Shown: positions 23,501 to 62,012 of the stretch, one piece after another
Layout of the letters: each line of letters opens with the position of its first letter
Position numbering within the stretch: the stretch's first letter is position 1
Assembly: GCA_050084515.1 (NCBI GenBank)
Contig: CM114271.1
Coordinates: forward strand, 44,888,001-44,952,000
Direction: 5' to 3'
DNA: 64,000 nucleotides
DNA from: Blasia pusilla
Lineage: Eukaryota
Program-made: the position numbers and the translations under genes
The notes under the pieces: generated by a model
Told to the model about the DNA's origin: nothing
Databases searched by the model: none
What the model saw: only the letters and a program-made list of their open reading frames with translations

Positions 23501-26500
23501 ACTGTCTACATAGCATCAGATGAGAATCTAGAGAGTGGTTTCGTGTTCTTATGCCTGATTCCTATAGTCAGAGAGTTCTTGCATCAGTTTGAGCAGGGAA
23601 AAGAATCTACTATTCCAAGTTCAAGCAGTAAAAGTTGTAACTTTGGGAATGGTGATCAGGACCAATCTGATGGATTTGCGGGCTCAGTACAAGGATGCAT
23701 TTTTGGAAAAGCATGGAGTGAAACTCGGATTCATGTCTGGGTTTGTGAAGGTATTTCGATAAATTTCTAGCTCAGAGTGGTTTGATTGATGGCTGAAAGA
23801 TTTTATTTCCTTTCTCTGGTGCGAGGTGTATGTGTCATTTTGGACTGTTTATCGTTCTTTGAGGATACTTGATGCAGTTGGATTGTTTTCGTAGCAACAT
23901 TCATTGGTGGCAGAATTTGTTCCTTCCTTTTGTAGGCGGCTGTGAGTGCTCTGCATCAACTTCCTGCAGTGAATGCTGTAATCGATGGAGATGACATCAT
24001 CTATAGAGATTATGTGGACATCAGCATTGCAGTTGGTACAGAAAAGGTATTTACTCTGCTGACTGAAAATGGAGGATAAGAACTTACGAATCCTTAGCTG
24101 TGGTAGGGAAAATTTCCTGGAGAGATGCCTCAAGGACATCATGTAGTGTTTGTGTCAGCACCTGACACAATGTTGAACTTTTTCTATCTGCCACTTGTAC
24201 AAAATTTGAACAAGAAATTACTGTCCAATAATGAAAAAAGGAGGGCAATGGAAAAGAAATCGTCATGCTCCATTTTGCCTCCATCCCTCTCCCCCTCTAC
24301 CATGGAACGCACATCTAGGAGAGCACAGAGGAGAGAGGAGGACTTGAGACTATTAATTTTAGCCTTGTCACCACGGACCCTTTGCCCTGGTTGGATGGTG
24401 ATAGAGACTGGAGCCGGTGCAGAGTGAGGAAGAAGTGAAGAATGTACCCTATGAGACTCTCATATAGCTTGAGTGCTGACCATACACAGCATTTGTGGGA
24501 AATGTCCTGGTGTCAACCTAGAAGCTCTTTACTAGTTACCTCACCTGATTGGGATCCCTAATTCATGTCTATTACCAGTGCAGCAGCTTTGGGCATTGAA
24601 TCTAGGCCACTCAATGTGTTCAACAGTTCTGGTACTACCAGCTTAGCTAGAAGCATCAGCAGACGCCGCTGCTCCTTGTGTGGTGAATTTGGCACAAGTG
24701 ACCAGGTAGTGACTATAGAGGCGTTATCCCCATCCTCGCAGAAGATATATGACTTCAGTTCTATTAATGACTGGAGGAGACTGTACTCATTAAGTAGTGC
24801 CTGTCGTAGCCTTGCGACCATAGACCCCGCGCCCTGGTTGGACGGTGCTTGAGACTGGGATGGGTGTAGAGAGAGGAACAAGTGAAGAAGGTACCATATG
24901 AGAGGAGGGAGACACTCTCATATAGTGTGAGTGCTGACCAAACAACGTGTTGGTGCGGAGCTTCCAAGTGTCAACCAAGAAACTCTTCACCACACCATCT
25001 ACTTTACCTGATTGGGATCCCCAATAGACATTACTTACCAGTGCAGCAGCTTTGGGCAATGAATCAAGGCACCTGAATGTGTTGAACAATTCTGGTGTTA
25101 CCAGCTTAGCAATATCAGCATATGCTCTTGCTCTGTGTGTTGTGAATTTTGCGCAGGAGACCAAGTAATGACTAGAGGTTTCATCCCCATGGTCATACAA
25201 GGCGCAAGAGTTTAGTTGTGTTCCCATCCTGTTTTTCTTATGGTTCAAGGGGATTGCCCCCGTCCTGAACTTGAACTTGAGCCGGGTTCCCAAGGAAGGG
25301 GTTCCCGGCAAATAGTTCTTCAGTTTTGCATTCTCAGGATATACCGTCAAAAGAGAGAGGTCAGACATTTTCATGGCTTCCTCCGTGCTGTTCTGCTGTG
25401 AGCGTTTGCCCACTGCTTTGGTTATGGCATCCACATATGCTTTCTCATCTTGCTCCCACAGTTCAGGCCCTGCTGGGAGCTTGGATGCTTGCACCATCTC
25501 TTGAACCTTTTTCGTCCAAGATTTGGCCTGCTTTACGGGTCTTCTTTGGGTCTAGGTTTTCCCCATCACCTCTTTAGGATAGCGATGGGAGTCCATTGTC
25601 TCCAGCTGCCTCCTCCATTTCAACTTGGCGATGTCACGTCTATCCTCCAAGAGTTCCACTCCAAGTTCTGATCTCACACTAACTCTGGCTGTTCGTGAGG
25701 AAGCTGACATCATACCCTGAAACACCTTCAGCTGCACAGCTTCAAGCCTGTCCTTTTGTTTGGTGTTGGCATCCCACACTGCTGCCCTATATTCCAGCGA
25801 GGGACGAATGGTATGCAAAATGACAGAGGGCTTTACTTCTGATGTGATGTCCCGGCAGTGTAGGAATCTGGACAGACCGTTCACCTTCTTGTGGCCTTTC
25901 TCAGTAGTCTCTTAATGTGTGCATCCCACATGCAATCTTCCAAGAATTCTATGCCCAGATAGGTGTATGTGGGCACACGGGGGATCTCTTGTTCACCCCA
26001 GTACCACTGTTGGTCTTGGTCCTCCTCCTTGCCATTGAAAATCATCACACCGCACTTCAGTACATTTGCCTCCATGCCCCACATGTCACACCAGATTTTA
26101 GTCAGGAAGATCGTCTCTGGAGGAGAAAGGAGGACAGAGCAAAGTCGTGAAGGAGGGAAGAGGATGGACACCAAGTGTGGGTTAGGGAGAAAGATGAGGA
26201 CACTGTGGGATGGAAGTGTCACAGAGAAATGGAGAGTGACCAGGGTTGAGGAGAGGGAACAATGGAGTAGGGACAAGGGGACAGAGGGTAGAGGTACTTT
26301 GTGCCCCTTTGGTTCCGTCCCATCCCATAAGGAGTGGTGTCCAGGGCATAGCACAGGCAGCACCACACTAGTAAGGGTGTTTCATCTGTGACAAACTCTG
26401 GGAAATATGGTTGGGAGTTGTAAAATGTGTCCAGCTGCAAAGGTAACTTCTTGGTTCGATGGGATGAGAACTATCTTTTGTTGTTTCTGCAGGGACTTGT

Positions 26501-30432: not shown

Positions 30433-31884
30433 TCAAGATCTCCCTTGAAATCCCCTACCAAAGGCATGACAAAAGGCTGTAGATATCATTGTAAGAGCAT
30501 CCGCATTCTGTTGTAGGACTTTCAACTCTAATTTTCGCTGTTCAATATCCATTCTTTGACCATCATGTATAACATCTATCATGGCATCAGTAGATTCCTT
30601 CATGGCATCTCCCATGGAGCTCTTACGCCGTCGTTTTCCTCTAATCCCATCCTTGAGGCTCTTCCTTTTCGAAGTTTCCTTGCCGAAATCTACATTGCCA
30701 CACAACACCACTAAAGTCATTAACTACATTTCCACATAAGACCAAAAAAGTCACAAAAATCATTAAAGACAATTATCAGAACCTTCAGTATGAGCACACG
30801 ATGAAGGCGCACGCGGAGTAGTTGGGATCTCTTCTGCATCCACTGGGATCTGAAATGACTCCACATCTATACAAACAATAAATAAATTAGTAGTAGCATA
30901 TGTGCATAATAAGTGAAATTAACAAAGAAAAGAACTTCCTTTGTTTCATATTCATGTACCTGGAGAAGACGATGGAGGAGAAGGTTCGTTGGTTGGGATC
31001 TCAAATGACTCCACCTCCATATAAACAGCCAATACGTTAGTAGTAGCCTTGTATTGATACTAAGAAACAAATGAACAAGGTGACCTCCTTCTTCTTTTGG
31101 TAAGATTGATATACCTGGTGGCACGAGTGAAGCTATCGGACTCATGGGTGGAGGATTGAAGTTAGCATTAAGATCAGGTAGAAGTGAAGTATCAAAGGTG
31201 GACACTCCCATGCTCTCCGGGTCCACGTCTTGTCTTTTGGGGAGCCATTCTACTAGACCCTTGTAATAGGCTTCATCAAAGTTTGAAGGTAAACCTAGTG
31301 ATTTCCGGTCCTTTCTCAGCATGCGAGTGTCAAAGTAAGACAATTGGCCGCTTTTGGCCTTTCGCTCCCAATCATGAACCTGTAATGAAAACTTACATGA
31401 GTGTCAATTGTAAAATAAAGACACTTCATGTTTTGCATCACATCATAAAAATTGGATACCACCAACTTAACTTACTTGTTTGAATTCTTTTATGAGAGCA
31501 CTCCATTTCTTTTTGCACGCCTAGCCATCACGAATAGGTTGCTTTATCCCATTCTTCAAACAAAAGTCAGCCATTTTTTTCCACTTTTGTTTTAAGGTGG
31601 CCATAGTAGATTGAGTAGTATAATTCAGTTCTAATCTCTCCATTTCATCTCGTTTTGCTGCAATCAGAATTTGAATCTCGGAAGTTGTCCATGGAATCAG
31701 CTTAGGCCATAGTAGATTGAGTAGTATAATTCAGTTCTAATCTCTCCATTTCATCTCGTTTTGCTGCAATCAGAATTTGAATCTCGGAAGTTGTCCATGG
31801 AATCAGCTTAGCATTCTGCGTTGGTACTTGAGAATCGAGTATGACACAATCCTCGTCCATATGACTTCCTTCCTGCAACGGCAA
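30433..31884 (-). pseudogene. Harbinger Myb/SANT (trihelix-like) DNA-binding partner protein, intron-containing and disrupted
   Basis: WTTSEIQILIAAKRDE...KQKWKKMADFC...CKKKWSALIKEF, then YFDTRMLRKDRKSLGLPSNFDEAYY and a C-terminal coiled region. Contains a stop codon and a tandem duplication. Confidence 0.75.
31599..31810. repeat. Exact 106-bp tandem duplication inside the Myb/SANT ORF
   Basis: ggccatagtagattgag...gaatcagctta occurs at 31599-31704 and again at 31705-31810. Confidence 0.9.
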
Positions 31885-39204: not shown

Positions 39205-39910
39205 TGGAACGGAGCGGCCACACATGATGTCATTAGAGAGACAGTAGCATCAATGGCTCGTACTGTAGGATACACCATTGGGCAAGAGCAACTCGATGTC
39301 CTACCTTCAACCACATAAGCAACCTCTCGTCGGAGAGTGGATCTTGTTATGTCTCGAGGTGGATTCCGAACACTAGGTGATGTGGTGGTTGCTGATCCAA
39401 CACGTTCTGACTTGGTGTGTCGAGCCGCACATACCAAAGGTTTGCGGCCGAAGCTGCAGCAAGAATCAAGAAGTTAAGATATGATGTGAGACATGCGACT
39501 GATGGATTTTATTCCTTTTGCAGTGGAAGTATTCGATCATTTACATATGTCTTTTGATTCTTTCTTGAATACATGTGCTCACCACTCCGTGGAGAATCAT
39601 CACCTTGCCCCTTCTCGTAGTCCTTCTCTCTCCCTAATTACTACTTATTTTCGGCAATGCATCTTAGTGGCCTTACAACGTGCACAAGCATTGCCATGGA
39701 TACGTCGTGTAGAGGTAGTGGGGGGTCGCTCGCGTCGTCGTCCATTCACGTGTGACCAACCACTCGTGTTCTTGTCAGATTTGTTTCAGGCTATCAATCG
39801 TGTAGCTCGTTGAGTCGATGTTTGCGTTGGCTAGTTGCCATTTTCTTTTTTGCATTCTTTTATGTTTTTTTTCACTCCTCTTTTGAGATGTTATTACCTT
39901 CCTTTGTCCT
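39205..39910 (+). mobile_element. 3' fragment (REL endonuclease and 3'UTR) of a CRE-like non-LTR retrotransposon
   Basis: Direct homologue, in the opposite orientation, of 42970-43660: ATHDVIRE...RRVDLV...DVVVADP...FIPFAVEVF...VALQRAQA, and a shared 3'UTR ttggctagttgcca...ttttgagatgttattacctt. Confidence 0.85.
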
Positions 39911-42969: not shown

Positions 42970-45850
42970 AGAAAGGTAATAACATCTCAAAAGAGGAGTC
43001 AAAAAATGCATCATGGAATGCAAAAAGAAGATGGCAACTAGCCAACACAAACACCAAATCAACAAGCTACACGATTGATAACCTAAAACAAGTCTGACAA
43101 CAACACTATTGGTTGGTGAGACGTGAACGGATGATCAGGCGAGCGACCACCACCACCTCCGCACAACGTATCAATGCCAAGGCTTGTGCACGTTGTAAGG
43201 CCACTGAGATGCATTGCCAAAAATAAGTAGTAACTACAAAGAGAGAAGGACTACATGAAGGGGCAAGGTGATGATTCTCAAGGGAGTGGTGAGCACATGT
43301 TTTCAGGAAAGTATCAAAAGACATATGTAAATGACCGAATACTTCCACTCCAAAAGGAATAAGTCCATCGGTCGTATGCCTCACAACATAACTTAACTCC
43401 TTGATTCTTGCCGTTGCTTCGGCCACTGAACCTTTGGTATGTGCGGCTCGACACACCAAGTCACAACTTGTTGGATCAAAAACCAGTGCATCACCTAGTG
43501 TCTGGAATCCACCTCGAGACATAACAAGATCAACTCTACGATGACATGTTGCTTGTGTGGTTGAAGGTAGGACATGGAGTTGCTCTTGCCTAATGGTGTA
43601 CCATGCAGTATGAGCCACCAATGATATCGCCTCTCTAATGACATCATGTGTGGCCGTTCGTTCTCCACCATATGCACATCGAAGAATATGGATATCCTTT
43701 GAATCAATGGGATATCTGCATACACAATTCAACAACCTAACAGAGAAGGATGGATAAGTCCAAGCCGTAACCCCAAAGTTATCGAGAATATACTTCGAGG
43801 AAGACAAAATGGAAGAATAAGAGGATTTGCAATAAGCCACGCTCAGACTCTTGTACCTACACATGAACGCAAATGAGCCCAATGAGCGTTAGAAGATGCC
43901 TCAAAAAGAATGCTGGAATTGTTTATTTGGTGCAAATTCTTGGAGATATGCTCTTGGAGTTGATCAAGCCCTTCCGTAATCAATTGACTGAAAGGTAGAA
44001 TTGCTTATGTAGCAAGTGAAAGAAGAGCTCAGAAAGATCTCAGTTGTTGTTGAAATAACAAATCTTCCTCCTCTACATGGGCGACATGATACATCAAGAT
44101 AGATGTTTCTCCTCGGAGAAACCTTGAAACCATAATCGGTGCCACCAACACCCAACTCCCCAAATAAGTTGTTGGATCAGATGTGGCTATGGAGGAAAGC
44201 CCCATCCCTCCGAAAGAAATAGGCAAGATAGCTTGTCATGAAACCAAACACCCTCCTCTCCCTCAAATGTGTTCAGGCCAAGAAGTTGACCAAAAGTTGC
44301 CAAGATAGAAGCGTCAAAAGAGGCCAAACGATGTAAGAACCTTGAAGTGGGAGGACAAGTGCAAAGAAAGTACGAGGGATATTGTAGAAAATATTGGGAG
44401 AGAATCCCATAAGCCACTTGGAATCCCCTAGATGAGGTAACAAATCAAGCCATTCCACGTCTTTTAAAAGGGCCTCATCCAATAACTTCGAGACATAGTC
44501 AATGAAGCCAATTAGTACCCCGAGGACCCTAACCCCTTCAATGTAGATGGGAAAATCAAGAGTAGGTGGGGTGAATGTTGACGGAAGGCATGAAGGAGAC
44601 CATACCCGATATTTACTAGGTTGGACTTCAAGGTTTAAGAAAGAGAGTTGCTCCACAAAATGGGTATAAGTAGGAACCACTTCAGTAGGAGGACATATAA
44701 TGTGAGTGTCACCAACAATAGAAGGGACGAGACAAGATGGAAATGCTTGGGCTGATGCTAGAAGGGTACAAAAATAGGCAATGGCAAATAGTGGGTCACC
44801 CATGGGATCACCTTGACTCATTCCAGAAGTTGATTGGATAATACAATATTCCCCCGAAGTAGCATGATGAGAATAGATAATGGGCGTCTCATAGGCATAG
44901 AAGGAGCGGAGAAATGGAATGAGACTTGCAAGTTGTCCTCCTGCACAACATAACTCCTCAAAGATGGCCGACGAGAAAATGAATTGAATTTGTTAACCAC
45001 ATCAACTTGAATTGCTACCCACTCTGGATGAATTTCAAGAGTGGAGCGAATCCCATGCACCTGAGCCTCACAACAACTAGGGGTTGCCACTCCCAATCGA
45101 TGAGGAAATAAGTGAGGACGAAGTTGCAAGCATAGGGATCGATTAGCCAAGCGATATAAAACCTCTCCAATAGCCAAAGGGCGGACATATGAAGGAGGCT
45201 TATCCATAGCCAACAAATGACAAGACACTAAGAGCCTAGAGATAGAGAATGGGAGACGACTTGCCACAATATGTGCACACACCTTATATATAGTGATAAA
45301 GCCAGTTGTTGAATCTTCCTGGGATAAAGCAATCGCGGAGATGCTCAAACATCATGCTTGATAGCCCGCTTGCTGATAAGCGAGCAGTATGAGGAAAGCC
45401 CTTGTGAAAACCTCCCTATCAATCTCCAAGTCAAGATCCATTGTTTAGCCTTCCATAAAAGGTGGTGCATCAATACTTGAAGGAGGGTGAAGAGTTTCTA
45501 AGAGAGCCACCGTGTCTGCATTTGGAACCCCCAGAGAGAGAGGACCCGATGCTCAAGCCACACGTGAAAACTCACCAACTTGCCCCAAAAGTAGACTTCT
45601 TCAAAGACCTTGTTGTATTGAAGGCCTCTCATGATTCGCATGTTGAGTGGGATTAACAGTAGCCAAGGAAGTACATGTTCATTCTGAATATTCTCCCAAT
45701 CCCCATACATAAAACGCTTGATACCTGTAGAGGTTTCACAATGATCCGTCACACCGCCCCTTGGAAGGAGGACTAAAACCCATTGTGGGAAGAGTAATAG
45801 GAGATACCAAACATTGATATATGTGGGATCGCGCTAACCTTTCTAATGGG
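42970..45850 (-). mobile_element. Degenerate CRE-clade non-LTR retrotransposon (RT, CCHC knuckle, restriction-like endonuclease)
   Basis: VRPLAIGEVLYRLA, LGVATPSCCEA, DVVNKFNS, SQGDPMGDPLF, IVGDTHI (degenerate YxDD), LPISFGGMGL, CVC...HILRC..GGERTATHD and RRVDL...D...K...FGVEVFG. Frameshifted. Confidence 0.88.
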
Positions 45851-47579: not shown

Positions 47580-47967
47580 TTAGTTAGCATGTTTTTATTT
47601 TCGTATAACACAAATATTTTTAGATGAATTTTTAATGAAAAATATTTTTAAATTTTTGAAAGAAATATTGACATCCCATTCCTCAATTAAATTTTAAATC
47701 ATATCACACTCCACTAAATAATTCTACGCTTACATAATAGTTCAAAGAATATTTATTCCTCCTCCTTGGACTGCTCCCATTAAATAACACATACTAATTG
47801 AATCACAACTCGATTTACAGTTATGAACTTGTTCCTCTTCAATTAAATTTGATTTTTCCTTCCCAAAATTAAAATTAAAATAAATTAAAAATTTTAACTA
47901 ATTAGTATTTTTAGTATATCTTTATTTTGTCTTATTATGCATATATAATTTTTAAAAATAATATAGA
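47580..47967 (-). mobile_element. Third, more diverged copy of the Helitron-like unit at 17898-18752
   Basis: Shares tagttagcatg..., ...taaataattc..., ...ttttccttcccaaaat..., ...ttgtcttattatgcata...ataatataga. Confidence 0.55.
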
Positions 47968-48067
47968 TAATTTTTGATCTCATATGTGTCTAAACTTGTT
48001 AAATTTAAAGTAGACAAGTTTACAAATCAACCTTCCAATGAAAAAATATTGAATATGGAAATGTGAT

Positions 48068-48998: not shown

Positions 48999-50065
48999 GT
49001 GATGGCATAGTTGCATGCCTTCTATATTTTTTTATTTTACAACATCATCAAATCAGACCTTAGATTCATGTACATATTGTTATCGTAGCTATGTCAGATC
49101 TCATGGTGGTTCTACATGTCTCAACTCTAATCTTTAATTTGTATGGATGTTAAAGGCAATCCAATCTTAAAAGAACAAATGTCCATACATATACACAATT
49201 TATTATTATCTCAAAATTATGAACTTACTATTTTCAAACTAACTCTCCTTTAAATTTTTTTAAAAAAGGCTTCATTTTTTTAGGAATATAAGTACTAAAC
49301 AAAATAATTCACCTCTCCTCTTATTATAATGTATATGGTGTCTCGTTCGAGCATATTACTCGTATTACTTCTTAGGATCAATTGAATGAAAACTAATTTT
49401 TTTAATATATTTCAAAGTTAAGATTCTTAACTATACCAAGGTTTTGTCACTGAATCGGTATGAGGGAAAATTAGTGGAAGGGATATGCTATGGAGGGAGA
49501 TTAGTGGGAGAGATAGGATAAATAAAATTGAGTTTGAGTTGGTAATGCATATGAACAAAAATACACGGATTTAATGGCCTTCAACATAACTTGTTATAAC
49601 ATGTTTAGTTTGAGGTTATGTAGAGGATGTCAATATCGGTGATGTCTTGTGTTAGGAGGTATGCAATGGTAAGATGGTCCAGTGGGAGATAGCAAGTAAC
49701 ATCAATTCTGAAGGTTGTCAAACCGGAGGTCTTGTAAAGTCCGTGACAATCAATTGGAGCACCACTAGAAGAGGAAGATATGTCGCATGACTACAAAGCA
49801 TTTGGAGGAGATTCCTCATGCGATAATAGAAGATCCATGGGCCAAGTGGAATGACACGCGGATCCACGTGATATATATATATCACCCTAATCATATTAGG
49901 CCCTAAAATAAATTTTCATCATAAAATACAAAGTAGGAAATAAAGCTATCTTACAAAATAAAAATATATTTATACGGTGACAAGCAAAGAAGACAATAAA
50001 GGAAATTTTCAAGAAAATAGGAATAGTTGTGTTAAGTAGGAGTAAAGTTGGTTGTTATGGAAATA

Positions 50066-50433
50066 TGTCATGACCATACAGATTATATCGTAGAGTATAG
50101 TGTGCTAGTAGAGGCCATACCTTATGTAGGGTCGTAGTGTATAGGTAGAGATGCAGTTTCATACATAGGGTTGGGGGTTACTCTGTTGAGGGTGACCTTT
50201 CTAGTAGGGGCCCGCTCTTAGGTTGGAGGATATAGTGTGGAGTGCACTCAAAGAATAGTTAGTTCTTTGAGTTGAGCCTGTTGCATTGGGAGTTAGCCTT
50301 GGTAGTGAGTAGAGCTCTTGGCTATGGTGGTTCCTGCAAGCTTCCACGTGGATTCTCCCATCGTGGAGTGGGTTTGGCTCGATCTATGTGATTCTATAAG
50401 TGTTTTATGACATTATGTCTTTCACGGATTTCA
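50066..50433 (+). repeat. Terminal repeat A1 of the gypsy element
   Basis: Colinear with 60062-60417 from tgtcatgaccatac to tttcacggatttca, with scattered substitutions and one ~10-bp indel. Confidence 0.9.
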
Positions 50434-52129
50434 CTCAAATAACTAGAGTAGATGGCTGGTAGCTTCGATCGTGGATCAGTAGGATCTGGTTAGGGCTGAT
50501 GGTGTACTCAGCCGTGGATGTTCGTGGCTTGTGGCCTATGTTGGAGGTGTGAATCTGGTGCGTGGTTGGATGAGGAAGAAGCGCCTTGCTGAGAGCTTTC
50601 CAACGCATTTTAGATTTTGTTAAGGGAGTTGGAAGTTATCAAGGATTGAAGATTCTGGTTCATGTTCAACGGTTTTCTGATATTGAGAGTTTGGAGTGCG
50701 GAAGCTCTTTTGAAGTTCATCCAAATTGGGTGAGAGGTTCCTGTTGCTACCTGTATTATGATCTCATGTGAAGCTATTTGCTTGAGTATGTGGAGCGTTG
50801 CGGATTTATGTGTGCATAAATCTGGGCGGAAGCACTGTCGGATTTTGGATTCTTGAGGTGTATGAACAACAATTTTGTCTGATCTTTAGCTCGGAGTACA
50901 AAGCTCATTTGTAGCTGATTTTTTGTGGAGAGATAGCTAGGATGGCCAATCGAATTCAAGTCAAAACAGATTCAATTTTGGTTGAGGATTTGTGGAGTAA
51001 TTTCTGATCAAAATTCTCCGGACTAGCTCAATTTGTGGATAGCAGATCGGAGGGGCTGGTTGGTTGGTGATTCATACGTTGTTGCTCCGGTTGGGGGCGC
51101 CCTGGTTGGGCCTCTCTCCATAGCAAAGAATGGCTAAGTGTGGCGAACAGGGCATGTCTCGAGCATTTCTCAGTGTTTCGAGGCTTCGAGGCAACTCGTG
51201 GTAGCTCGGGGCGAGTGGGCGTGAGAGGCGGAGTAAGGAGCAAGGAGCAAGCAAGCAAGCTTGCTTGCTTGCTTGCTTGGGCGTGAGGCAGTTTTTGCAG
51301 GATTTGTGAGTTGAGTGTTGCATAATTGGTCACCCATCTTTGGGCTATTCTGCCTAGAAGAGGCTTAACTGCTGAGTTCTTAACTAAGCCATTGTACACA
51401 CTAGTGTAGCTCATTTAGTGTTATTCGGAGATGTGTTAGGCGCTTTGTGCATCTCTGGTTTTTGGTTGATGGACTTCTACGCATAGTATGCTCCATAGTA
51501 TAGCCTTTCCATGCAGGTGATATTTTCAGGGGCTGTGAGTCCGACTAGCACGTCATCGACCAACGGCGGAGTAGCTATTACGTTAGAATTGTGTGATGGG
51601 TTCTGTGGATTCAGGGGCGCCACGTTTGGTGGATTGTATTACCTTGATTTCCATTTCCGATTGGAGGGTTGTCATTGGACTTCCTGTGTTTGGATCCCTT
51701 CCATCGTTGCTTCTTTCTTACGCGCCCATTGTTAGGGTTGACGCTGATTTCCAGAGTAGTGTTACTCCTGTGTGCTACCGGTAGTGAGGCTGGAGTGATG
51801 ACCAGTAGACCGTGGGAGGCTTCTTGTGGTGATGACATGTTAGGTTGCCTACACCTATAGCTAGTAGAGCTAGAATAGTATAGCGATATCGACGTCACTT
51901 GGTTACTTAGTGGTGGTGATTTGGTGGTGGTGCGGCATCGGCATTGGTCATCACGGAACTGTCGGGTGGTCTGGTTGGGGATCGTGGTGCGGACAATGGT
52001 GGTTTCACACGGAGTGGATTTAGGTATCGGCTACCTTTTCCACTTCCGACGGTTGATGAAGAAGAGGACGAGGATGTTCCAAACACCCAGTCTTCTACGT
52101 TGTTATCGAGTGTTGCAGCTCCATTGATT

Positions 52130-53424
52130 TAGGACATGGACGGGATATATGGGGCCATGAAGGGCCCACGACGATACTCGGATGCAGTGGGCACCATTGA
52201 GTTGGAGTAATTCATGCAGGAGTTTGATACGTGGTGTGATATGCAGATGTTGAGGAACGTCACGTTGTTTACATCCTTCTTGGCTTGGAAGGGGTTGTTT
52301 CAGCACTTGGAGGGACCACCCATGGATGATTACCATGAGTTTAGGAAGGACCATGTTGCTGAGATTGAGGCGTGGAGACAATATTGGTCTCCAAGCTATG
52401 TGTCTATCACCCATGGTGGTATTGGTAGTAGTGCTCCTACTATGCCTGCCAGCCCGACGTTGAGTGGTACGAGTACAAGCCGGAGTGGGGGTACCAGTGG
52501 AGGTACCCATGGAAGTACCAGTGGGGGTACTAGTGGAGGTACTAGTGCCCCACCATCGTTTAGCCCGGTTGCAGAACTATCATGGAGTGAAGACAGAGAA
52601 GTTGAGGAGTCTTCAAGAATTTGAGCGAAAGACTGGTGAGAGTCTTCGTGAGGCATACACTCGTATGCGACGCTTGATTTCAATTACCTAGGGTGTGACT
52701 CAGGCTCAGGTAGTCCAGTTTTGGTATGGGATCTTGGACAGAGAGTTGCGCCGCAGGGTATATGATGCTACTCTTATGAGTGATAATTCACCCACATTGA
52801 CCCATGTGTTTGCTCTATCTGAGAAGATTGAGCTTAACATGGTGGAGGAGAGAGTGGTGATATCCGCATTTAGTAGGGATACAACTACTACTTCTCGTGT
52901 TTAGCAGTCCACCTCACAGTCTCGTAGTAGTGGTGGTGGTAGTAGTAGTGGGAGTCGTGGGGGGTACACACAACCTCAATGAGGTCTTAGAGGGACAATT
53001 GCGCAGAGACCATTGCCTTCATTTGCTGCCCCGCAACAAGGACAGTCATGTTGGACATATGGAGGTGATCATGTTAGGAAGTTTTGTCCCCAAGAGGATG
53101 GGAGACGGACTTTGGAGGATGGGCCTCAATCGGCCCCAGCTCAATGTGATCATTGCGGGAGACCATGTCATCCTCGAGAGCGTTGCTTTGATCTTCATCC
53201 AGAGTTGAGATCACGCCGCGGCCATGGTGGAGTAGCTCCGAGAGGCCGAGGTGGTAGAGGTGGTAGGGGTGATAGAGGTGGACCAGTGGTTGGAGAGCCT
53301 ACGGTGGCTACCCCTACCATTACGACACAGTCAGCTATGGCTACCAGGATTGAGCAGTTGGAGCAGAAGTTGGCTATTATGGTTGGTATCCAGCATAGAT
53401 CAGGTTCGGGAGCAAGGGCTTCCA
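52130..53424 (+). pseudogene. Gag of the gypsy element (frameshifted, interrupted by a solo LTR)
   Basis: FERKTGESLREAYTRMRRL...QFWYGILDRELRRRV (capsid-like), knuckles CWTYGGDHVRKFC (degenerate) and CDHCGRPCHPRERC, and RGG repeats. Confidence 0.8.
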
Positions 53425-54455
53425 TGTCGCGACCCTCATAACCAAACAACACCAAATAGGCGCCAAGTGAAACATCAGTACTCAAAGGAACTCACGCTGC
53501 AAGGTTTGCGCTTTGGAGAGGCGTTTGGAAAAGTCTCTTGGAAAAGTCTAAGAGATGAAATGCGGAACAGAGTTGTGCATTTCATGCGTTAGTGGTCGCA
53601 ACCAGGAAACCTAGTCCAAACGCGAGCCAAGACTTGAGATGAGTTGAGTCTTGGGAGGTTGGTTGCCAAAGAGGTGAGAACCAGTTTGGAACACGACTAG
53701 CGTTTGGGAGAATCTGACTGTGTTTAGGACCATAACATTGAGCTCCAAGATGCATTTGGGAAAAGTAAGGCTGCTTTGGAAAGCTGATCTTGAGACGCTT
53801 TTGACGCACCAAAGATCTTAGCAAACGCATAAGTACAAGCTGAGATATTGGCCAAAAATGATTGAGAGAGCAATCGGGTTGAGGGCCAATTGGAGAGGCC
53901 CGGGTGTCTTTCCCCAAATGTAGGGGGCCCCCGGAGATCCCCAGAAGTACTATTAAGGGAGGACTCTCTCCGAGATGTCTCGGGAAATGAATCCCCACTT
54001 TGGATGCCAAACGGCGTTTCAGAGGCACGGGATGGAACGGGAGTTTGGCGTTGGAACTCGAAACCCAAACCTAATCCAAGGGAGTGGACTTTGTATGCCA
54101 CACTTGGATTCCAACCCGAGATTCACTTCATGCAAGTCTTGGTGAGGAGCTCATTGGATGTCCATTGGACAGTTGGAACCGCTAGGCGCGAAACGCTGTT
54201 TCAAGTTCCTGAACCGACCAGAAAGTCTGTCCCAAGTCTTTCGAGATTTTCCCGTGTTGTAAACCGCGAAACTAGGAAGGTTGAGCTTGATGAGAGTCCG
54301 AGATGAGAACTCGGAAAGTAATCCCGCTGATTGATCCAAGACCCGACTAACCAAAGTGCGTGTTTGGATGCAGATCAGCGTTGAGAGCGTGACCTACTGA
54401 ACGCACGCTTCCGCAACAAACAAGATTAACGTTCAAGGAGAGTAGGCGCACGACA
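53425..54455 (+). mobile_element. Solo LTR (1031 bp) nested in the gag-pol junction, TSD TTCCA
   Basis: ttcca|TGTCGCG...GCACGACA|ttcca, with TG...CA termini and a short terminal inverted repeat. Confidence 0.9.
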
Positions 54456-55059
54456 TTCCACCTCTTATGGAGGGGATGATCTCTCTTATATGGCGAGTGC
54501 AGAACAGGTTGAGGCATCGTCTCTAGTTATGAGAGGAGCCACTCGAGCGTCAGAGCCACGTGGTGCTACTGTGGAGTTGGACCCACATAGGGGTGAGGCT
54601 GGGAGGCAGGCTAGGCTTCCCCAGTCATTCTTGTTCTCAGAGGTGCTTAGGACTCCATCCATGGTTCCTACGCAGCCTATTGAGCCGATATTGGGGATTG
54701 AGGCATCTACATCACGTGTAGTAGACACGGATCGACATCGATCGATGTGCGGATGGCAACCGGTGTTGGGATCCCCATTGTTTTCGACCACGGAGTGATG
54801 GCTTTAGGAGTTGACTTAGCTCTTGTATTTCAGCTAGCAACCACGTTGTGTGAACGTGGGTGTTATTCTTGCTACACGTGTTGAGGTGGATGAGGGTGTT
54901 GCGGTGGAGCGACCCTCTATGTTAAGTGTAGCATTGAGTACCGGTGCTACTTGGCAAAGAAAGCGGCGAAGATGGATGCATTACCGGCCGGCCAGCCATT
55001 GATCGTGAGAGGCTTACACGGGTGTATGTATGTTGGACAACCGGAGTGGGATATTCGAT

Positions 55060-55420
55060 TGGTGAGTCCTACAGACATGTGTATAGACAAGGTAGAGTCT
55101 TGTTAGACTCGGTGCCCAACCTTTGATGTTGGGAAAGCGGCATGTATTGGTTTGGGTATTCGGAGGTCGAGCTTGAGCCTTGCCCATTCCACATTCAAAC
55201 ATCACTTGGAGGAGCCAATGATAGGTCTCAATTCATGACACGGGAGAAGTTTTCTCTGATTGAGACCAGATCATGCGATCGATAGGTCCCGGTTGGGAGT
55301 ATCTGCGGTAGTCACATCGGCCGAGTCGTATGATGTACTAGTTGGAGGAGCGATGATTGTACCCGATGGGTTTTCAGATGGATTCTTGGTCGAGACAAAG
55401 ATCTTATAGACCTGGTTGGC
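55060..55420 (+). pseudogene. Aspartic protease of the gypsy element (frameshifted)
   Basis: gtcttgttagactcggtgcccaacctttgatgttggga reads VLLDS(G)AQPLMLG once a 1-nt deletion is restored. Downstream YDVLVGG flap-like motif. Confidence 0.7.
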
Positions 55421-55827
55421 AGTCCGGGGATGGACGTATGAGCCAAGTTCCTGTGAGATTTATTTATGGGGCTCGACCAGGAGGGTCTTCCCCAACAGTG
55501 TTAGCATCTGTGGCTGGTTTTAGTGGAGTAGTCACTTGGCCAGGAGACTTTTTGGAGGCTAATGTTTCTGCTATGGATTCTCCTGTGCATGAGGAGGTAG
55601 AGGAGGTCCCTATTTTTGCAGCAGTGGCATCCTCATCGTTGGATGTGCCACTTTGGAGTTCAGGCGGTGTACTATGGCAGGAGGCTGATCGCCTAGTGCA
55701 GGAGGCTTGGTGTGAGGTTGTTATACCTCAAGAGATAGAGGAGGCCCTACAAAGGACTCCTACTTCAGGTCTAGTTGGGTTATCCCCTTTGGATACTACA
55801 CCCATTGTATGGCAATATCCGCCGGAG

Positions 55828-56540
55828 GGCATTTGTGTGTTAGATCTCTTTGGTGGGATTAGCACTGGTTTGGCTGCAGTGTTGCATGCTGGTATTCCTG
55901 TGCGGAGATACGTATATGTGGAGCGAGATGAGACGGCCCAGAGAGTCTCATCCCGACATATTGGTCAGTTGATACGGAGATATCGTGAGTTGTTGCCGCC
56001 ATCAACTATTCGTGGGTACCAGCGTGCTTTGCCGTCACACATTGCATTGTTGGGGGTGCATGACCTTGAGAGGGTTGGTCGTGTGGATTTGGTGATCGCT
56101 GGATGGCCATGTCAGGGTCATACACGTGTTGGTCGTGGTAAGGGATTACACAACGCTAGGTCTCGATTGTTTTGGGAGATGTTACAGGTGTTACAACATC
56201 TTCAGGTTCATCAAGCACGTGCTCTAGCTTACATTCTGGAGAATGCTCCATTGTTGGGTGACCCTCGGACCCGGATGATGGAGAGTGTTCATGAGGTGCG
56301 GTCTTGGATTGGACCAGCGGTGTTGTTGGATGCAGCGCGAGTTGACTCGCGTGCACATCGTCCACGCTTGTGGTGGACAAACTTGTTGCCTAAGCATATG
56401 ATGCAATGTAGCGGGATCCTTGCCTTACAGTGGATAGTATCTTGGATACTAGGCGACTTTCTCAGGTGGTGAGGGTTATTGATCGGTCACCCATGGCAGT
56501 GGTGAACCGTGTGGGCCAGCCTAGGATGGCACTACCCAAT
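55828..56540 (+). pseudogene. DNMT3-like C5 cytosine DNA methyltransferase domain within pol
   Basis: Motif I VLDLFGGI (55843), II YVYVERD, IV DLVIAGWPCQG (catalytic PC within 56101-56115), V RSRLFWE, VI YILENA (56239) and VIII DAA...AHRPRLWWTNL (56358). Motifs IX-X are not found and are apparently deleted. Confidence 0.9.
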
Positions 56541-56752
56541 GTAAATGGGATGTAATGGCTGGGCATGTGGAGTTGGTTGCTCATGCTGGTGGAGGAGTTA
56601 TTTGCTCACATGATGGTATAGCTAAGGGTGTACCATCTTGTGAGGGGGTTGCGTAGTAGCCAATGGCATCGTCCTCTCCCTCTAGTGTGCCATTGGAGGA
56701 GACTTGGGAGCCATTACTTGGGCCCAAGCTTACGGGAGGTGAGAAATGACGT

Positions 56753-58135
56753 TTGACACAGTTCCTATGTGCTTATAGGAGTTGTTTTGCCTTTAGCATG
56801 AAGGAGTTGGATGCTCTGGTTGGACCCGGTATACGGATTGATTTGGCTAGTGATACGCCAATCTTTCGTCGTCCCTACCGATATAGTGATATGGAGAGGG
56901 ACCTGATTCAGAGTAGGACGTTGGACCTTTTGGAGGCTGGATTAGTGGAGTTCTCGCATGGAGAGTATGCATCAGCCACTGTCATGCCTGCTAAAAAGGA
57001 TATGCATGGCAACTACACGGATAGGCGAATGTGTGGAGATTACCGTCCTATCAATCGGCAGACTAAGGCCGATAGGTATGCCATGCCTACACCTGAGGAG
57101 ATCTTTGATGTGGTGGGACAGGCAAAGATTTTTAGTACTTTGGATCTTCGGGCAAGATACCATCAATTGCCGATTCGGGAGAGTGACAAGGCCAAGACAA
57201 CATTTTGGGGTGTCAACTCTCATGGCAAGGATTGTTTGTACCAGTGGAAATTCTTACCCTTTGGGTTGAAGAATGCACCTGCCGAGTTTCAGAGAGTGAT
57301 GGACGGAATCCTAGCAGGGTTGGATTTTGTTCGGTGTTACATTGATGATATCTTCGTGTTCAGTAACACGGTGGAGGAGCATCATATACATTTGCAGATT
57401 GTGTTTGAGCGGTTGAAAGCTCATGGTCTACGTTTGCATCCAGGAAAGTGTAAGTTCTTCCATGAGGATGTTGAGTACTTGGGTCATGTGATCTATCCAT
57501 ATGGTTTGGGAGTTCAGCAAGCAAAGTTGGAGGCTATTGCACTTATTCCGCGTCCGATAGATGTGAGTAGAGTTTGAGCATTCATGGGATTGGCGAACTA
57601 CTATCGGAAGTATGTGAAGGGATTTAGTACTATGACAAAGCCTTTGAACCAATTGCTGAAATCAGATCAAGAGTGGCATTGGGGAGATGATCAAGAGAGA
57701 GCTTTTGTGGAGCTTAAGGCCCAATTGGTGGCGGCGCCTATCTTGAGGAGACTTATCAGAGGGTGCCCATTTCAGTTACACCCTGATTGGAGTAGGTTGG
57801 GACTTGGAGCGGTGTTGACACAACATGATGATGAGCACATGGAGTTTGTGGTGGCCTATGCAAGTCGTGCGAATAATGCAGCGGAGTCACGCTATAGTTC
57901 ATATGAGGGAGAGTGCTTGGCAGTAGTGTGGGCTGTGGCACACTTTAGGTGTTACTTGTTTGGCACGATTTACCCTTGTTCTCGATCACCAACCGCTCAA
58001 GTGGTTGATGGAGTCTGACAAGCTTACAGGGAAGCTTGCACGGTGGGCTCTTATCTTACAGGAGTATGACTTCCAGGTGGTACATAGACCTGGAGTTGCC
58101 AACCTTGATGCTGATGGGTTGAGTAGGAACCCATG
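56753..58135 (+). pseudogene. Ty3/gypsy reverse transcriptase and RNase H
   Basis: RMCGDYRPINRQT, FSTLDL..YHQ, LPFGLKNAPAEFQR, YIDDI, KCKF...VEYLGH, GLANYYRKYV, LHPDWSRLGLGAVL, YSSYEGECLAVVWAV, DHQPL and NLDADGLSR. Contains stops and a frameshift. Confidence 0.95.
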
Positions 58136-58499
58136 TACTAGCCAAGAGGATACAAGTGGGGCTAGATGGCATGGCGAGGTTGATGAGGAGATGGTGCTAG
58201 GTTGGCATGCATCCGCCTTTTTATGTTGGTTAGGGGTGGACTCTAGTATGGAGGACCACATGATATCTTACTCTTGTCAGAGGGTTGATGGCCAGCCTTC
58301 AGATCCTAAGGTTGGAGAAGGTGGTACGGATCAGCGTGATATTCATGATGATGCGTTGGTGTTGGAGTTCCTACGGACCACTAGGGTGCCAGGCATAGTG
58401 AGTGCCAAGGAGCGAGACCTTGTTCTTCAACGTGCTAAGAGGTATCCATTGGAGAGAACACATATTCTCCGAGTGTGGGAGGATGGTAGAGTACGAGAA

Positions 58500-59480
58500 G
58501 TGCCGCATTTGGCTGAGAGATAGCGCATTGTGCGACACGCCCATGAGGAGTTGGGACATTTTGGGGTAAAGCGTACGTATAGCTTACTCCTTGGTCAATA
58601 TTGGTGGCGTGGCATGCATACTCAGCTGCAGCTGTTGGTGTCATGTTGTATGGTTTGTGACCGGGTGAGGGCATCATTCAATGCCCCTACACCACAGTTA
58701 CACCCCTTGCCTATTATGGGGTTGGGTTACCGTTGGAGTGTGGACTTTGTGGGACCGTTATCGTTGAGTGTATGACATCATCGATATGTGTTGGTGATGG
58801 TGGAGCACTTCTCCAAGTGGATTGAGTTGGTGGCATTACCTGACAAGGCAAGTGAGGGAACGGCGTATGCGTTTCTTGATAGAGTGCTTAGTCATTTTTG
58901 TGCACTAGCTGAAGTGCTGACCGACCAGGGTACAGAGTTTCACGGTGAGTTTCAAGTCTTGTGTGACAAGGCGTTGATTGATCATCGGACCACGTCTTGA
59001 GATCATCTAGAGGCGGATGGTTTGGCTGAGCGTGTGGTTCAGACGGTGAAGAGGGCATTGCGCAAGTATGGCCTACAGAAGGGGCATCTTGGAGATTGGG
59101 ATATTCAGTTGTCATGGTTAGCCATGGGGTATAGGTTCAGTCGCCAAGCATCCTTGGCTTCCTTCTCATCTTATTTTCTGTTATATGGCTGAGATCCAAA
59201 CAAGCCAGCAGTTATTCGTCGGGAGTCTAGTGAGGTGGTGAACCTTGATGACCGAGAGATGTGGATGAGAGTGTGTTCTCAGCGGGCAGAGCTCTTTCGG
59301 AGAGTTATGCCAACAGCCTTTGAGAATCTTGCCGTTGCTCAACACATGGATACGTTGCGGTATGCAACCATTCGGGATGGAGGTTATCGACCATCGATTC
59401 GTAGGTTCCATGTGGGGGACTATGTCTATTTGCAGCAGATTGCACCGACAACGTTGGACGTGACGGCAGCCGCGACCGCT
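58500..59480 (+). pseudogene. Integrase (HHCC and DDE core, GPY/F-like region)
   Basis: HEELGHFG...CMVC, RWSVDFVGPL, VLTDQGTEF, DGLAERVVQT and FHVGDYVYL. Several stop codons. Confidence 0.93.
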
Positions 59481-59639
59481 TTTTTCGAGTCGCGAGGTGT
59501 TAGCTTCGGAGTTCTCATGTTGGAGGGTCGTGATGGAGTTGTTTGGAAGGACCATGTGCGTAATTGTGCGCCATGTCATCTTCCAAATGTGGATGGTACT
59601 GTTGACCCAAGCTTAGCCATGATACATGCTAGCTTGAGG

Positions 59640-59780
59640 TGCATGTTGTGTGGGTCTGCTGGTAACGCAACCCGTATGGTGGTGTGTGATCGGTGTTCTA
59701 GGGGTTGGCACATGATGTGTTTGACTCCACGTATGGATGTTGTTCCTACTAGAAGGTGGGTTTGTCCTCGATGTACTTAG
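59640..59780 (+). CDS. PHD finger at the integrase C-terminus (part of pseudogenised pol)
   Basis: CMLC-x8-VVCDRC-x3-WHMMC-x11-WVCPRC, a canonical C4HC3 pattern with the conserved Trp. Confidence 0.9.
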   Translation, partial: CMLCGSAGNATRMVVCDRCSRGWHMMCLTPRMDVVPTRRWVCPRCT

Positions 59781-59953
59781 AGAGGTAGATGACTTGATCT
59801 TTGCATGATATGGATTACATATGTGCAACTAACGATGGGGCAACCTAGCACCCGACCTTCTGATTCGTACACCCACGAAGGTGTATAGCATGTAGTAGAT
59901 GTATAAGGCTACCTGGGAGTTAGAGGGACCTAACCGCCAGTTAGGGGGGGCGA

Positions 59954-60523
59954 GTTGTGGTACACTTGTGTTTGTGGATGCTCTCGTCTATGTTATGTAT
60001 GTATGTGAGTATGGTATGTCAGCGATGTATGTTGTATGACGATGTGGATTCGCACGACAACTGTCATGACCATACGGATTATGTCGTAGAGTACAGTATG
60101 CTAGTAGAGGCCATACCTTATGTAGGGCCGCAGTGTCTAGGTAGAAATGCAATTTCATACATAGGGTTGGGGGTTACTCAGTTGAGGGTGACTTTTCCAA
60201 TAGGGCCCGCTCTTAGGTTGGAGGATATAAGGTGGAGTGCACTCAAAGAACAGTTAGTTCTTTGAGTTGAGCCTGTTGCGTTGGGAGTTAGCCTGGTAGT
60301 GAGTAGAGCTCTTGGCTATGGTAGTTTCCGCAAGCTTCTCCCATCGTGGAGTGGGTTTGGCTCGATTGTATGTGATTCTATACGTGTTTTATGACAGTAG
60401 ATCTTTCACGGATTTCAGTTGTGATACACTTGTGTTTGTAGATGCTCTCGTGTATGTTATGCATGTAAGTGAGTATGGTATGTCAACAATGTATGTTGTA
60501 TGACGATGTGGATTCGCACGACA
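59954..60523 (+). repeat. 3' terminal repeat block B1-A2-B2
   Basis: B1 59954-60059 and B2 60418-60523 (106 bp each, gttgtg(g/a)tacac...ttcgcacgaca) flank A2 60062-60417. Confidence 0.9.
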
Positions 60524-62012
60524 AATATTGAAGAGAGGCTCTAGAAAAAAATAGAAGAAACTTATGGGAAAAATTTTTAACCTATAGTGTATTATGAAGG
60601 ATTACCTCGTATACAACTGGAAAAATATGAATGTGAATATAGATAGTAAAAGAAAAATCAAAATATGTGTAAAGTGCATTATTCTGATTGTTTTTTATAC
60701 CTAGTTTGCAGTAGTTTAATAGTTAATATGAGTTTTTGTTTATGATCTTCATTGGTAAAGAGAGGACATTTATTAGTTGTGATGGGTGGATTAACTTTAG
60801 TGAAGGATAATTGCATATTTGACTTTGTGAACGTGCCCAATCACCATGCATTTTTGGTGCCTCTCTAAATACCTAAGTAATCTAAATAATGGAGTAAGCA
60901 ATAATTTTACATATAGAGAGGGAGTATTAGGAAGTCATCCAATTTTTTGCATATTCGCAATAGAATTTTAACTACCCAAGTTATATGGTGTAGTTATTTT
61001 AAGAGGCACTTATGTTTGTTAGGTGACTCAAGCAAGAGTGGTCCCTTGTAATCCATGTTGTCATTCATGAACTTTGAATTTTTAAACTTGTTGGATGGGT
61101 TAACGCTATGGCCAATAACATCATGAGTGTATTTTTATGGCTCAAATGGATTTCTAGAACCATGTAAAAAGTGGTTCCACCATCCCAAGAAATCTTCATG
61201 CACGTCACCAAGTGTTCTGCTTCTCTTTCAAGATAATCTTAGAAGCATAGAAATCAAAAGACGTATGATGACCTGCAATTCTTGGTCTTGCTAGGGATGC
61301 ATGTTTGCTATGAAACACATGTAGTAGGTTTTTTTTCCTTTGAATGTCTCCAATCTTTTTCATTAAATTTTAATGCCTCAAATACATTGATTTCCTTCTT
61401 AATACATACAAAGGATATGTAAATTTAAGGTTAAACAATATGATCCAAAAATGGAGAAATAAAAAGTAACCTATAGTGACATAATGATAATTCTGATAAA
61501 CGAATTTCACTAAAAGTTGAAGAATGTCATTTTTGTACAAGAAATCCATGCCAATCCTTGATGAGCCATTAGCATCTTGTCTTTTCTTATCATCATTACA
61601 AGTTAGAAGTGCCTTGCACCCAATAGAAATGTAGTGGTTCAAATCATTCATTGAACTCAATATTCGACAATGCGCTAGAGTAAAATTGAAGAGAAGAATA
61701 TTTTCCCGATAAAGATACAATGTTAAGAAAATTTACATCAATAAAATGAGAATAAATAATTTGTATATTTTTATCAATAAATTATGTTGTTTCATTTTCA
61801 ATAATGATTCATGGACTTTGAATCAAATACTTTTTGAGTCCAATTGGTTGTCATTTAGATGAAAAAGACTAGAGGAATTGCAATTAATTTTAATGATGCA
61901 TGGCCAAAGATAGAAACATATTTCTTTGTATTGTTGTAGACTGGGGAAGAGGATCTATGGCACACTCGGCATAAAGGTATAGTAATCTATTACTATAAAA
62001 CTCTTATGAGGA

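Follow-up and report, generated by a model that had tools for sequence, protein, structure and literature searches.

A 64,000-nucleotide stretch of Blasia pusilla DNA (assembly GCA_050084515.1, contig CM114271.1), referred to here as the window, carries at positions 50066-60523 a retroelement whose ends are split direct repeats. The element is an old, decayed copy of a bryophyte-type lineage of the Ty3/gypsy type. A single repeat A (A1) stands at its left end, and the repeats B1, A2 and B2 follow one another at its right end, with the same four bases, AATA, on both flanks. This arrangement, described in the original prediction, was found both by direct reading of the sequence and with a repeat finder. 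Comparison with related copies indicates that the A...B-A-B layout, inserted by a DDE integrase, is very probably a property of the whole family. The form A-internal-B-NN-A-B, in which NN is a spacer of 2 nucleotides (nt), is best explained overall as the regular inserted form of the element, arising as a circular permutation of a cDNA with two long terminal repeats (LTRs); the balance of probability lies somewhat on the side of this explanation.

Within the window, A1 and A2 share 93.0% identity over 355 aligned positions, and B1 and B2 share 93.5% over 107 positions. Probes for A (31 nt) and B (35 nt) each matched the window twice with at most three mismatches, compared with 0 matches expected from 100 shuffles, and no further occurrence of either repeat was found in the window. 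The outer tips of the element read TGTCATG... and ...CACGACA, giving inverted tips of ~7 nt with six of the seven positions matching.

Recurrence of the layout and target-site duplications

Related copies were collected by scanning metagenome contigs with an alignment of homologues of the cytosine DNA methyltransferase (DNMT) encoded by the element, which yielded 80 loci. The parts of the element were mapped onto them by BLAST, first with A and B of the window and afterwards with pieces of locus L016 as references. All 24 related loci with a readable 5' end start with A alone at an unrelated flank; in 23 of them A opens with TGTCATG or a form of it with one base changed, and the tip of L028 is altered. 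Three pairs share an insertion site (L004 with L005, L023 with L025 and, approximately, L030 with L047), so that the 24 ends represent ~21 independent insertions. Neither B before A nor an A-B-NN-A arrangement was seen at the 5' end of any of these loci. Set aside from the count were L010 and L045, which are cut within A; L033, which has the primer-site region and no A; L031 and L034, which have an inverted piece of the polypurine tract (PPT) and B in place of A; and L001, which has A and an internal deletion. The inverted PPT-B piece of L031 (6578-6949, equivalent to 6343-6714 of L034) lies at the place of A1 directly before the primer-site region and forms a head-to-head rearrangement.

The 3' ends take two forms. 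The arrangement PPT-B-NN-A-B is present in L016, L028, L048, L055 and the window, and L011 shows PPT-B-NN-A as far as the end of its contig, making six 3' ends with B-NN-A(-B). A single B followed by unrelated sequence is found in 12 rows (L021, L025, L026, L029, L030, L032, L033, L043, L050, L063, L065 and L071). The flanks of L048, which ends in B-A-B, and of L030, which ends in a single B, are 93-95% identical, showing these two to be diverged copies of one old insertion. Thus, at least some single-B copies are secondary B1/B2 deletions, and for others collapse in the short-read metagenome assembly may be the cause. With A alone at 24 of 24 5' ends and a recurring B-NN-A-B 3' end, the layout is a trait of the family rather than of a single rearranged copy. 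The original prediction had named ordinary paired LTRs in other full-length copies as the observation that would reduce the element to one rearranged copy; a search for them came out against such a reduction.

Target-site duplications (TSDs) were counted in the nine copies for which both ends are available, the window element included. A perfect 4-bp TSD lies exactly outside TGTCATG... and ...CACGACA in seven of the nine (AATA in the window, CATA in L016, TGTT in L025, TGTG in L030, TTCA in L050, ATTA in L063 and CACA in L073). The flanks of L029 agree at three of four positions. In L028, AATG is found on both sides, the left copy lying five bases ahead of the point at which the damaged tip resumes. 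The recurrence of perfect 4-bp TSDs indicates that the AATA match in the window, for which chance had been considered as an alternative, is a true duplication. The position of the TSDs outside the tips indicates that a DDE reaction with staggered cuts inserted the A...B-A-B (or A...B) unit as a whole. The tips of Gypsy and Ginger elements follow the pattern TGTNR, according to the available text of PMC2836005. TGTCA and, as the reverse complement of the other tip, TGTCG fit this pattern; AGTTG, with which B begins, and TGAAA, the reverse complement of the end of A, depart from it.

Reverse-transcription landmarks, transcript and internal joints

A G-run, made up of an A and then five to seven G, lies two bases before B in all 16 rows that were compared, namely the window and 15 loci. 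On the other side of the interior, the 10 nt directly following A1 match CTCAAAGAAC with at most one base changed in 10 of 11 rows and differ in L030. Among the ten relatives shown, this site reads CTCAAAGAA in nine and TTCAAAGAA in one, giving overall CTCAAA(G/T)AAC and not TGG.... The earlier statement that no TGG-type site follows A1 therefore holds, the window reading CTCAAATAAC at 50434-50443. No tRNA genes with which the site could be compared were found in the window or in 30 loci. The 10-mer after A1 is the same as the 5' arm of a hairpin inside A and is complementary to the 3' arm of that hairpin (CTCAAAGAAC-loop-GTTCTTTGAG). The hairpin is kept in the families of both the window and the metagenome, in most of 28 aligned A copies; three copies are deleted there and several carry single-base changes. 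This complementarity hints that the element may be self-primed or may have a regulated primer site. Tf1 is primed by the first 11 nt of its own transcript. The candidate site described here resembles that self-priming in being complementary to the 5' RNA of the element itself, the hairpin 3' arm lying ~160 nt upstream, and differs from it in that the complementary stretch is probably internal to the RNA.

A stranded RNA run (X22), which carries the same species label, and three sets of DNA contigs were mapped to the window. The element family is extremely abundant in the DNA runs. The X22 RNA is in the sense orientation and covers the 3' part of A1, the entire interior and A2, with the depth rising inside A1. 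The depth falls from 98.9 at 59949-60335 to 3.65 at 60336-60722, and B2 is barely covered. The robust outcome is a transcript boundary within A and almost no transcription of B2.

Comparisons of the repeats showed that the two copies of each change together. No column distinguishes 21 A1 from 5 A2 copies, or 5 B1 from 4 B2 copies, in the metagenome set. An 8-bp deletion is common to B1 and B2 of the window, and several lineage variants are common to B1 and B2 of L048. Identity of the window A1 is 93% with its partner A2 and only ~72% with the metagenome A copies. Within the metagenome family, the partner repeats are no closer to each other than to the repeats of other copies, the partner ranking anywhere from 1st to 15th; the within-copy identity test is silent there because these are old copies from a burst. 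The concerted change of A1 with A2 and of B1 with B2 indicates that the repeats are remade in each replication cycle, as in LTRs, and speaks against a frozen rearrangement that spread as DNA.

The two internal joints differ in character. At the B1|A2 joint the abutted tips form the palindrome CACGACA-NN-TGTCATG, and the spacer reads ac in the window and L028, gc in L011, L016 and L055, and at in L048. In five copies the A2|B2 joint is exact to the base, and the A end marked by the primer site runs straight into the B start marked by the PPT. A different A|B joint is present in L073 and L060, which represent the same insertion: here the end of A is followed by the first 9 nt of the primer site, 5 filler nt and B. 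The 3' part of this insertion (L073 13007-13903) is aberrant, containing inverted pieces of A and of the interior and no PPT-B1, with the TSD CACA. From its structure it looks like a faulty reverse-transcription product that was still inserted via the normal tips, and its joint looks like an end-joined U5/U3 junction with a primer-site copy that was not removed. This joint argues that A2|B2 is made anew from the cDNA ends and is not copied from a template. The B1/A2 joint had been proposed to be a circle-like junction. The right tip does abut the left tip there; however, the joint that looks freshly made is A2|B2, where the U5 end meets the U3 start.

A probable permuted LTR and competing explanations

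The landmarks and the transcript together suggest which part of the element would serve as the LTR. As the RNA would run from inside A1 to inside A2, with its boundaries within A, the LTR in reverse-transcription terms would be B-NN-A, in which U3 would consist of B, NN and the 5' part of A, the last being its promoter-proximal portion, and R and U5 would make up the remainder of A. The primer site after A and the PPT before B would then be the reverse-transcription landmarks of this LTR. The integrase would ignore the outer LTR ends and would act on the two TGTNR-type tips that face each other across the 2-nt spacer of the internal B|A joint. The inserted A-int-PPT-B-NN-A-B would thus correspond to an interior flanked by two B-NN-A LTRs and opened at the NN of the left one. 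This reading of the element as a permuted-LTR retrotransposon is probable.

The pathway by which the opening may take place is proposed more tentatively. The integrase would cut both strands at the internal palindrome, removing the left B, and would insert the two tips of that one joint together, yielding the 4-bp TSD. The outer ends of the cDNA, the U5 end and the U3 start, would be joined before or after insertion to give the A2|B2 joint. The left LTR would become double-stranded soon after the second strand transfer, and the right one only after ~8.5 kb of plus-strand synthesis; this suggested timing may be the reason why only the left joint is cut. Single-B copies may result from later B1/B2 recombination, or directly as A-int-B if cutting precedes the second strand transfer. 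Cutting inside a palindromic LTR-LTR junction has been described in vitro for the integrases of foamy virus (PFV; PMC1180852) and HIV-1 (PMC1905944), as far as the accessible text of both papers goes. That a DDE integrase routinely works on a palindrome resembling a circle junction within the LTR, that the element enters the genome as permuted cDNA and that host end-joining makes the A|B joint is possible, with the chances somewhat against it. The broader claim of the original prediction, a family-wide and unusual way of regenerating the ends of an element with a DDE integrase, is supported by the recurrent layout and the TSDs; that this way is also tRNA-independent, as the prediction had it, is a possibility.

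The split repeats may also be restored as in DIRS/PAT-like elements. Here the internal B1-NN-A2 would bridge sub-genomic cDNA into a unit, possibly circular, molecule, and the DDE integrase would only insert the finished molecule, so that neither cutting within the LTR nor host end-joining would be needed. The layout is formally identical to the split direct repeats of PAT/Ngaro elements, as these are presented in the accessible parts of PMC4157794 and PMC8969392, and the internal region of DIRS-1 is required for end restoration according to the available text of PMC7192593. The concerted evolution of the repeats suits such a process too, as does the abundant RNA, which lacks the start of A1 and all of B2 and indicates that both are regenerated from internal copies. 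However, the PPT before B and the conserved site after A are ordinary LTR-type landmarks that define the LTR as B-NN-A, the NN spacer is not marked by a polymerase stop, and the L073/L060 joint, with its primer-site remnant and filler, looks joined rather than templated. The TSDs and TGTNR tips, moreover, are signs of DDE chemistry, which is absent from DIRS-type models. Restoration of this kind is unlikely, though considerably less so than the remaining two explanations. The more serious of these is a frozen accident, in which one rearranged ancestor gave rise to an A...B-A-B unit that spread as DNA, by Ginger-like cut-and-paste on the TGTCATG/CACGACA tips or by segmental duplication, the split repeats having no part in replication. 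Short inverted tips, TGTNR ends and 4-bp TSDs also mark Ginger1 DNA transposons, whose transposase is a Gypsy-type integrase and in some cases has PHD fingers (PMC2836005, in the text available). DNA-only spread would let the repeat copies drift apart; the likeness of A1 to A2 and of B1 to B2 within lineages that are 15-28% apart, with no fixed differences specific to A1 or B1, therefore counts against it. The family is also very abundant and transcribed in sense over its whole length, and reverse transcriptase, RNase H, PPT and primer site are all in place. The frozen accident is very improbable.

The remaining explanation takes B as a true short LTR and A as a leader, with a small B-A-B element nested in, or in tandem beside, a 5'-truncated full element. 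B1 does stand directly after the PPT, and B-NN-A resembles an LTR followed by a 2-nt spacer and a primer site. However, B precedes A at 0 of 24 5' ends, the TSDs bracket A1...B2 (or A1...B) and not B...B, and the gap between B1 and A2 is only 2 nt, too small for the 4-bp duplication of a second insertion. This explanation is scarcely credible, and the version of it offered in the original prediction, in which B is a short LTR and the pattern arose by local recombination or aberrant integration, is not supported, no B lying upstream of any A1.

Several observations weigh against the permuted-LTR reading or limit its detail. The mirror form A-B-NN-A-int-B, which a plain 2-LTR circle should produce equally, was seen in 0 of 24 loci. 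Single-B 3' ends outnumber B-NN-A(-B) ends by 12 to 6, and A-internal-B could be the main product with B-A-B as a by-product. The pathway has been reconstructed from fossil genomic copies: all nine relatives checked for open reading frames (ORFs) are decayed, as is the window copy, and chimeras may occur among the metagenome contigs. On the side of the RNA, a pile of 29 fragment ends at 60223 (~position 162 of A) may mark an RNA 5' end, a 3' end or clipping; R is thus placed inside A only roughly, and reads of other copies can map to A1 or A2 interchangeably. As to priming, the five filler bases of the L073 joint do not match the hairpin region. Folding of the stretch from A to the primer site gave a structure without the local hairpin for the window (z -3.08) and one with the hairpin for L028 (z -1.82), and the folds lend no clear support to a switch between hairpin and primer site.

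Coding content, neighbouring repeats and related systems

The element, 50066-60523, was delimited by direct reading of the sequence and with the repeat finder, and its parts are listed in the table. Pfam scans were run on single ORFs and on three read-through frames with X at the stops. Pfam matches together with inspection by eye gave the gene order gag-like region, C5-type DNMT, reverse transcriptase, RNase H, DDE integrase and PHD finger, and the ORF list and read-through frames show the copy to be broken by many stops and frameshifts. L016 has the same order of reverse transcriptase, RNase H and DDE integrase. The tyrosine recombinase family PF00589 was found neither in the three read-through frames of the window element nor in L016, and no Pfam family was reported for the gag-like ORF, its knuckle included. 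Inside the gag-like region, at 52484-52542, four in-register 23-nt copies with a period of 12 nt (AGTGGGGGTACC-like) encode a repeat rich in Gly, Ser and Thr.

Table. Parts of the split-repeat element and their positions in the window
Feature	Position	Strand	Basis
Left 4-bp TSD, AATA	50062..50065	+	Sequence; twin at 60524-60527; 4-bp TSDs at the same boundaries in relatives
Repeat A1, starting with the integrase-type tip TGTCA	50066..50433	+	Sequence, repeat finder, alignment
Hairpin within A, arms ACTCAAAGAA / TTCTTTGAGT	50246..50272	+	Palindrome from repeat finder
Putative primer-binding position CTCAAATAAC, 10 bases directly 3' of A1	50434..50443	+	Sequence
Gag-like ORF with CCHC-type knuckle	52983..53419	+	ORF list; knuckle by eye
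Nested 1,031-bp TG...CA insertion, 5-bp duplication TTCCA	53425..54455	+	Sequence; skipped in X4, X7, X22
C5 cytosine DNA methyltransferase domain, motifs DLFGG and PCQ	55357..56472	+	PF00145, E 3.2e-06
Reverse transcriptase (RVT_1)	56750..57577	+	PF00078, E 2.3e-31
RNase H, split by a frameshift (RT_RNaseH, RT_RNaseH_2)	57680..58067	+	PF17919 and PF17917
DDE integrase, H2C2 zinc domain (Integrase_H2C2) and rve core, in-frame stops	58512..58997	+	PF17921, E 9.4e-13; PF00665, E 9.1e-11
PHD finger, C-terminus of the integrase frame	59640..59774	+	PF00628, E 1e-10
Polypurine tract AGGGGGGG, three bases before B1	59943..59950	+	Sequence
Repeat B1, ending with the integrase-type tip ...CGACA	59953..60059	+	Sequence, repeat finder, alignment
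2-nt spacer ac between abutted tips, palindromic joint CACGACA-NN-TGTCATG	60060..60061	+	Sequence
Repeat A2	60062..60417	+	Sequence, repeat finder, alignment
Repeat B2; single A common to A2 end and B2 start, no extra base	60417..60523	+	Sequence, repeat finder
Right 4-bp TSD, AATA	60524..60527	+	Sequence

The C5 methylase domain of the window element is divergent from the Pfam profile. The PF00145 match spans only positions 61-119 of the 324 profile positions, with DLFGG (motif I-like) and PCQ (motif IV) visible. Homologues of the DNMT ORF with 60-70% identity include, among the matches listed, proteins named Marchantia, Sphagnum and Calypogeia; remoter homologues among them are named Closterium, and many metagenome proteins match too. 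Long homologues such as P0153 combine PF00145 with reverse transcriptase, RNase H, integrase and PHD domains. No Klebsormidium-named homologue is among the 120 and 36 matches listed.

The nested insertion is skipped in the contigs and reads of X4, X7 and X22, which join 53419 to 54456, and is absent from L016. It was considered as a solo A-B unit and rejected, since its only resemblance to A or B lies in its last 9 nt (CGCACGACA), which equal the end of B. The insertion, which interrupts the gag-like region of this copy and is foreign to the family, probably represents a solo LTR from a different family that shares the integrase tip. Other repeats were observed elsewhere in the window. Two tandem units of ~440 bp, 74-80% alike, are present at each of 17900-18752 and 24360-25190, and a third, partial relative of the 17900-18752 unit lies at 47673-47972; these units were considered as B-A-B ends of other families, and as no matching upstream repeat was found, they do not stand out as such ends. 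Inverted repeats of ~640 bp at 39212-39850 and 43022-43659, ~3.2 kb apart, are 85-89% complementary in three blocks and could belong to a large terminal-inverted-repeat element or be two inverted LTR-like pieces. A perfect tandem duplication with a 106-nt unit (100% identical) occupies 31599-31810.

In comparison with Ty3/gypsy elements (Metaviridae), the family has in common the order of reverse transcriptase, RNase H and integrase, a gag-like CCHC region, a PPT, TG...CA (TGTNR) tips, a short TSD and an integrase C-terminus that carries a reader domain, which in this family is a PHD finger. It differs in having no identical LTR pair at the ends, in the location of the integrase tips inside the functional LTR and in a primer site that is not of the TGG type. 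PAT-like/Ngaro elements have the structure A1-int-B1-A2-B2, a tyrosine recombinase and no TSD, as far as the available text of PMC4157794, PMC8969392 and PMC7192593 goes. The window family shares with them the A1-internal-B1-A2-B2 order and ends that need regeneration from an internal B-A copy. In contrast to them, it has a DDE integrase (H2C2 and rve), 4-bp TSDs, TGTNR tips, a PPT before B and a methyltransferase of the C5 and not the Dam-like type. The 2-LTR circles of PFV and HIV-1 are alike in that abutted palindromic integrase ends are cut internally by a retroviral-type integrase (accessible text of PMC1180852 and PMC1905944). There, however, the junction exists only in the circle, between complete LTRs, and its cutting was measured, whereas in the window family the abutted tips are a permanent part of each LTR, with a 2-nt spacer, and cutting is deduced from genomic copies. 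Ginger DNA transposons move by cut-and-paste, with terminal inverted repeats of 40-270 bp and no reverse transcriptase; the window element has ~7-nt tips together with reverse transcriptase and RNase H.

The closest described element is KnitGypsy-Dnmt3 of Klebsormidium nitens, for which the legend of Fig. 4c in de Mendoza et al. 2018 (PMC5890265) gives DIRS-like repeats with Gypsy domains; the kind of element is thus already known. Like the window element, KnitGypsy-Dnmt3 has a cytosine DNMT inside a Gypsy-type Pol, A-coding-B-A-B repeats and a streptophyte host, the DNMT being called Dnmt3-type; these features are taken from the accessible part of PMC5890265. A common lineage of the window element and the K. 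nitens elements is likely. The main text of that paper, in the part available, gives no TSDs, tip analysis, PHD finger or mechanism. The view of the original prediction that the layout is not that of Ty3/gypsy stands in so far as split repeats are the PAT/Ngaro layout; it does not stand as an exclusion, the legend in PMC5890265 being a Gypsy precedent in print. In searches of openly accessible literature, no analysis of TSDs or of the integration route of a split-repeat Gypsy element was found. Among the publications listed, those on split direct repeats concern, by their titles, tyrosine-recombinase or other element classes or are reviews; literature searches listed nothing relevant on circularly permuted LTR retrotransposons and no paper on KnitGypsy beyond de Mendoza et al. 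2018, and a 2026 preprint on adenine methyltransferases in retrotransposons yielded nothing on such elements either. The 4-bp TSDs, the TGTNR tips at the internal joint, the U5|U3 nature of the A|B joint, the absence of the mirror form and the derived state of single-B copies appear to be new.

Annotation based on identical LTRs, whether by people or by software, would mis-annotate or miss an abundant family of the A...B-A-B or A...B form. The TSDs at permuted ends, the abutted internal tips, the U5|U3 joint and the absent mirror form turn the remark in the 2018 legend into a testable question, namely whether an internal junction is the normal substrate of a DDE integrase, as was proposed from in vitro work on the foamy virus and HIV integrases. 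The result is relevant, too, to the origin of split repeats in DIRS-like elements. If the proposed mechanism is true, split direct repeats would be a convergent solution of tyrosine-recombinase and DDE retroelements, and the lineage would link LTR retrotransposons mechanistically with cut-and-paste elements of the Ginger type.

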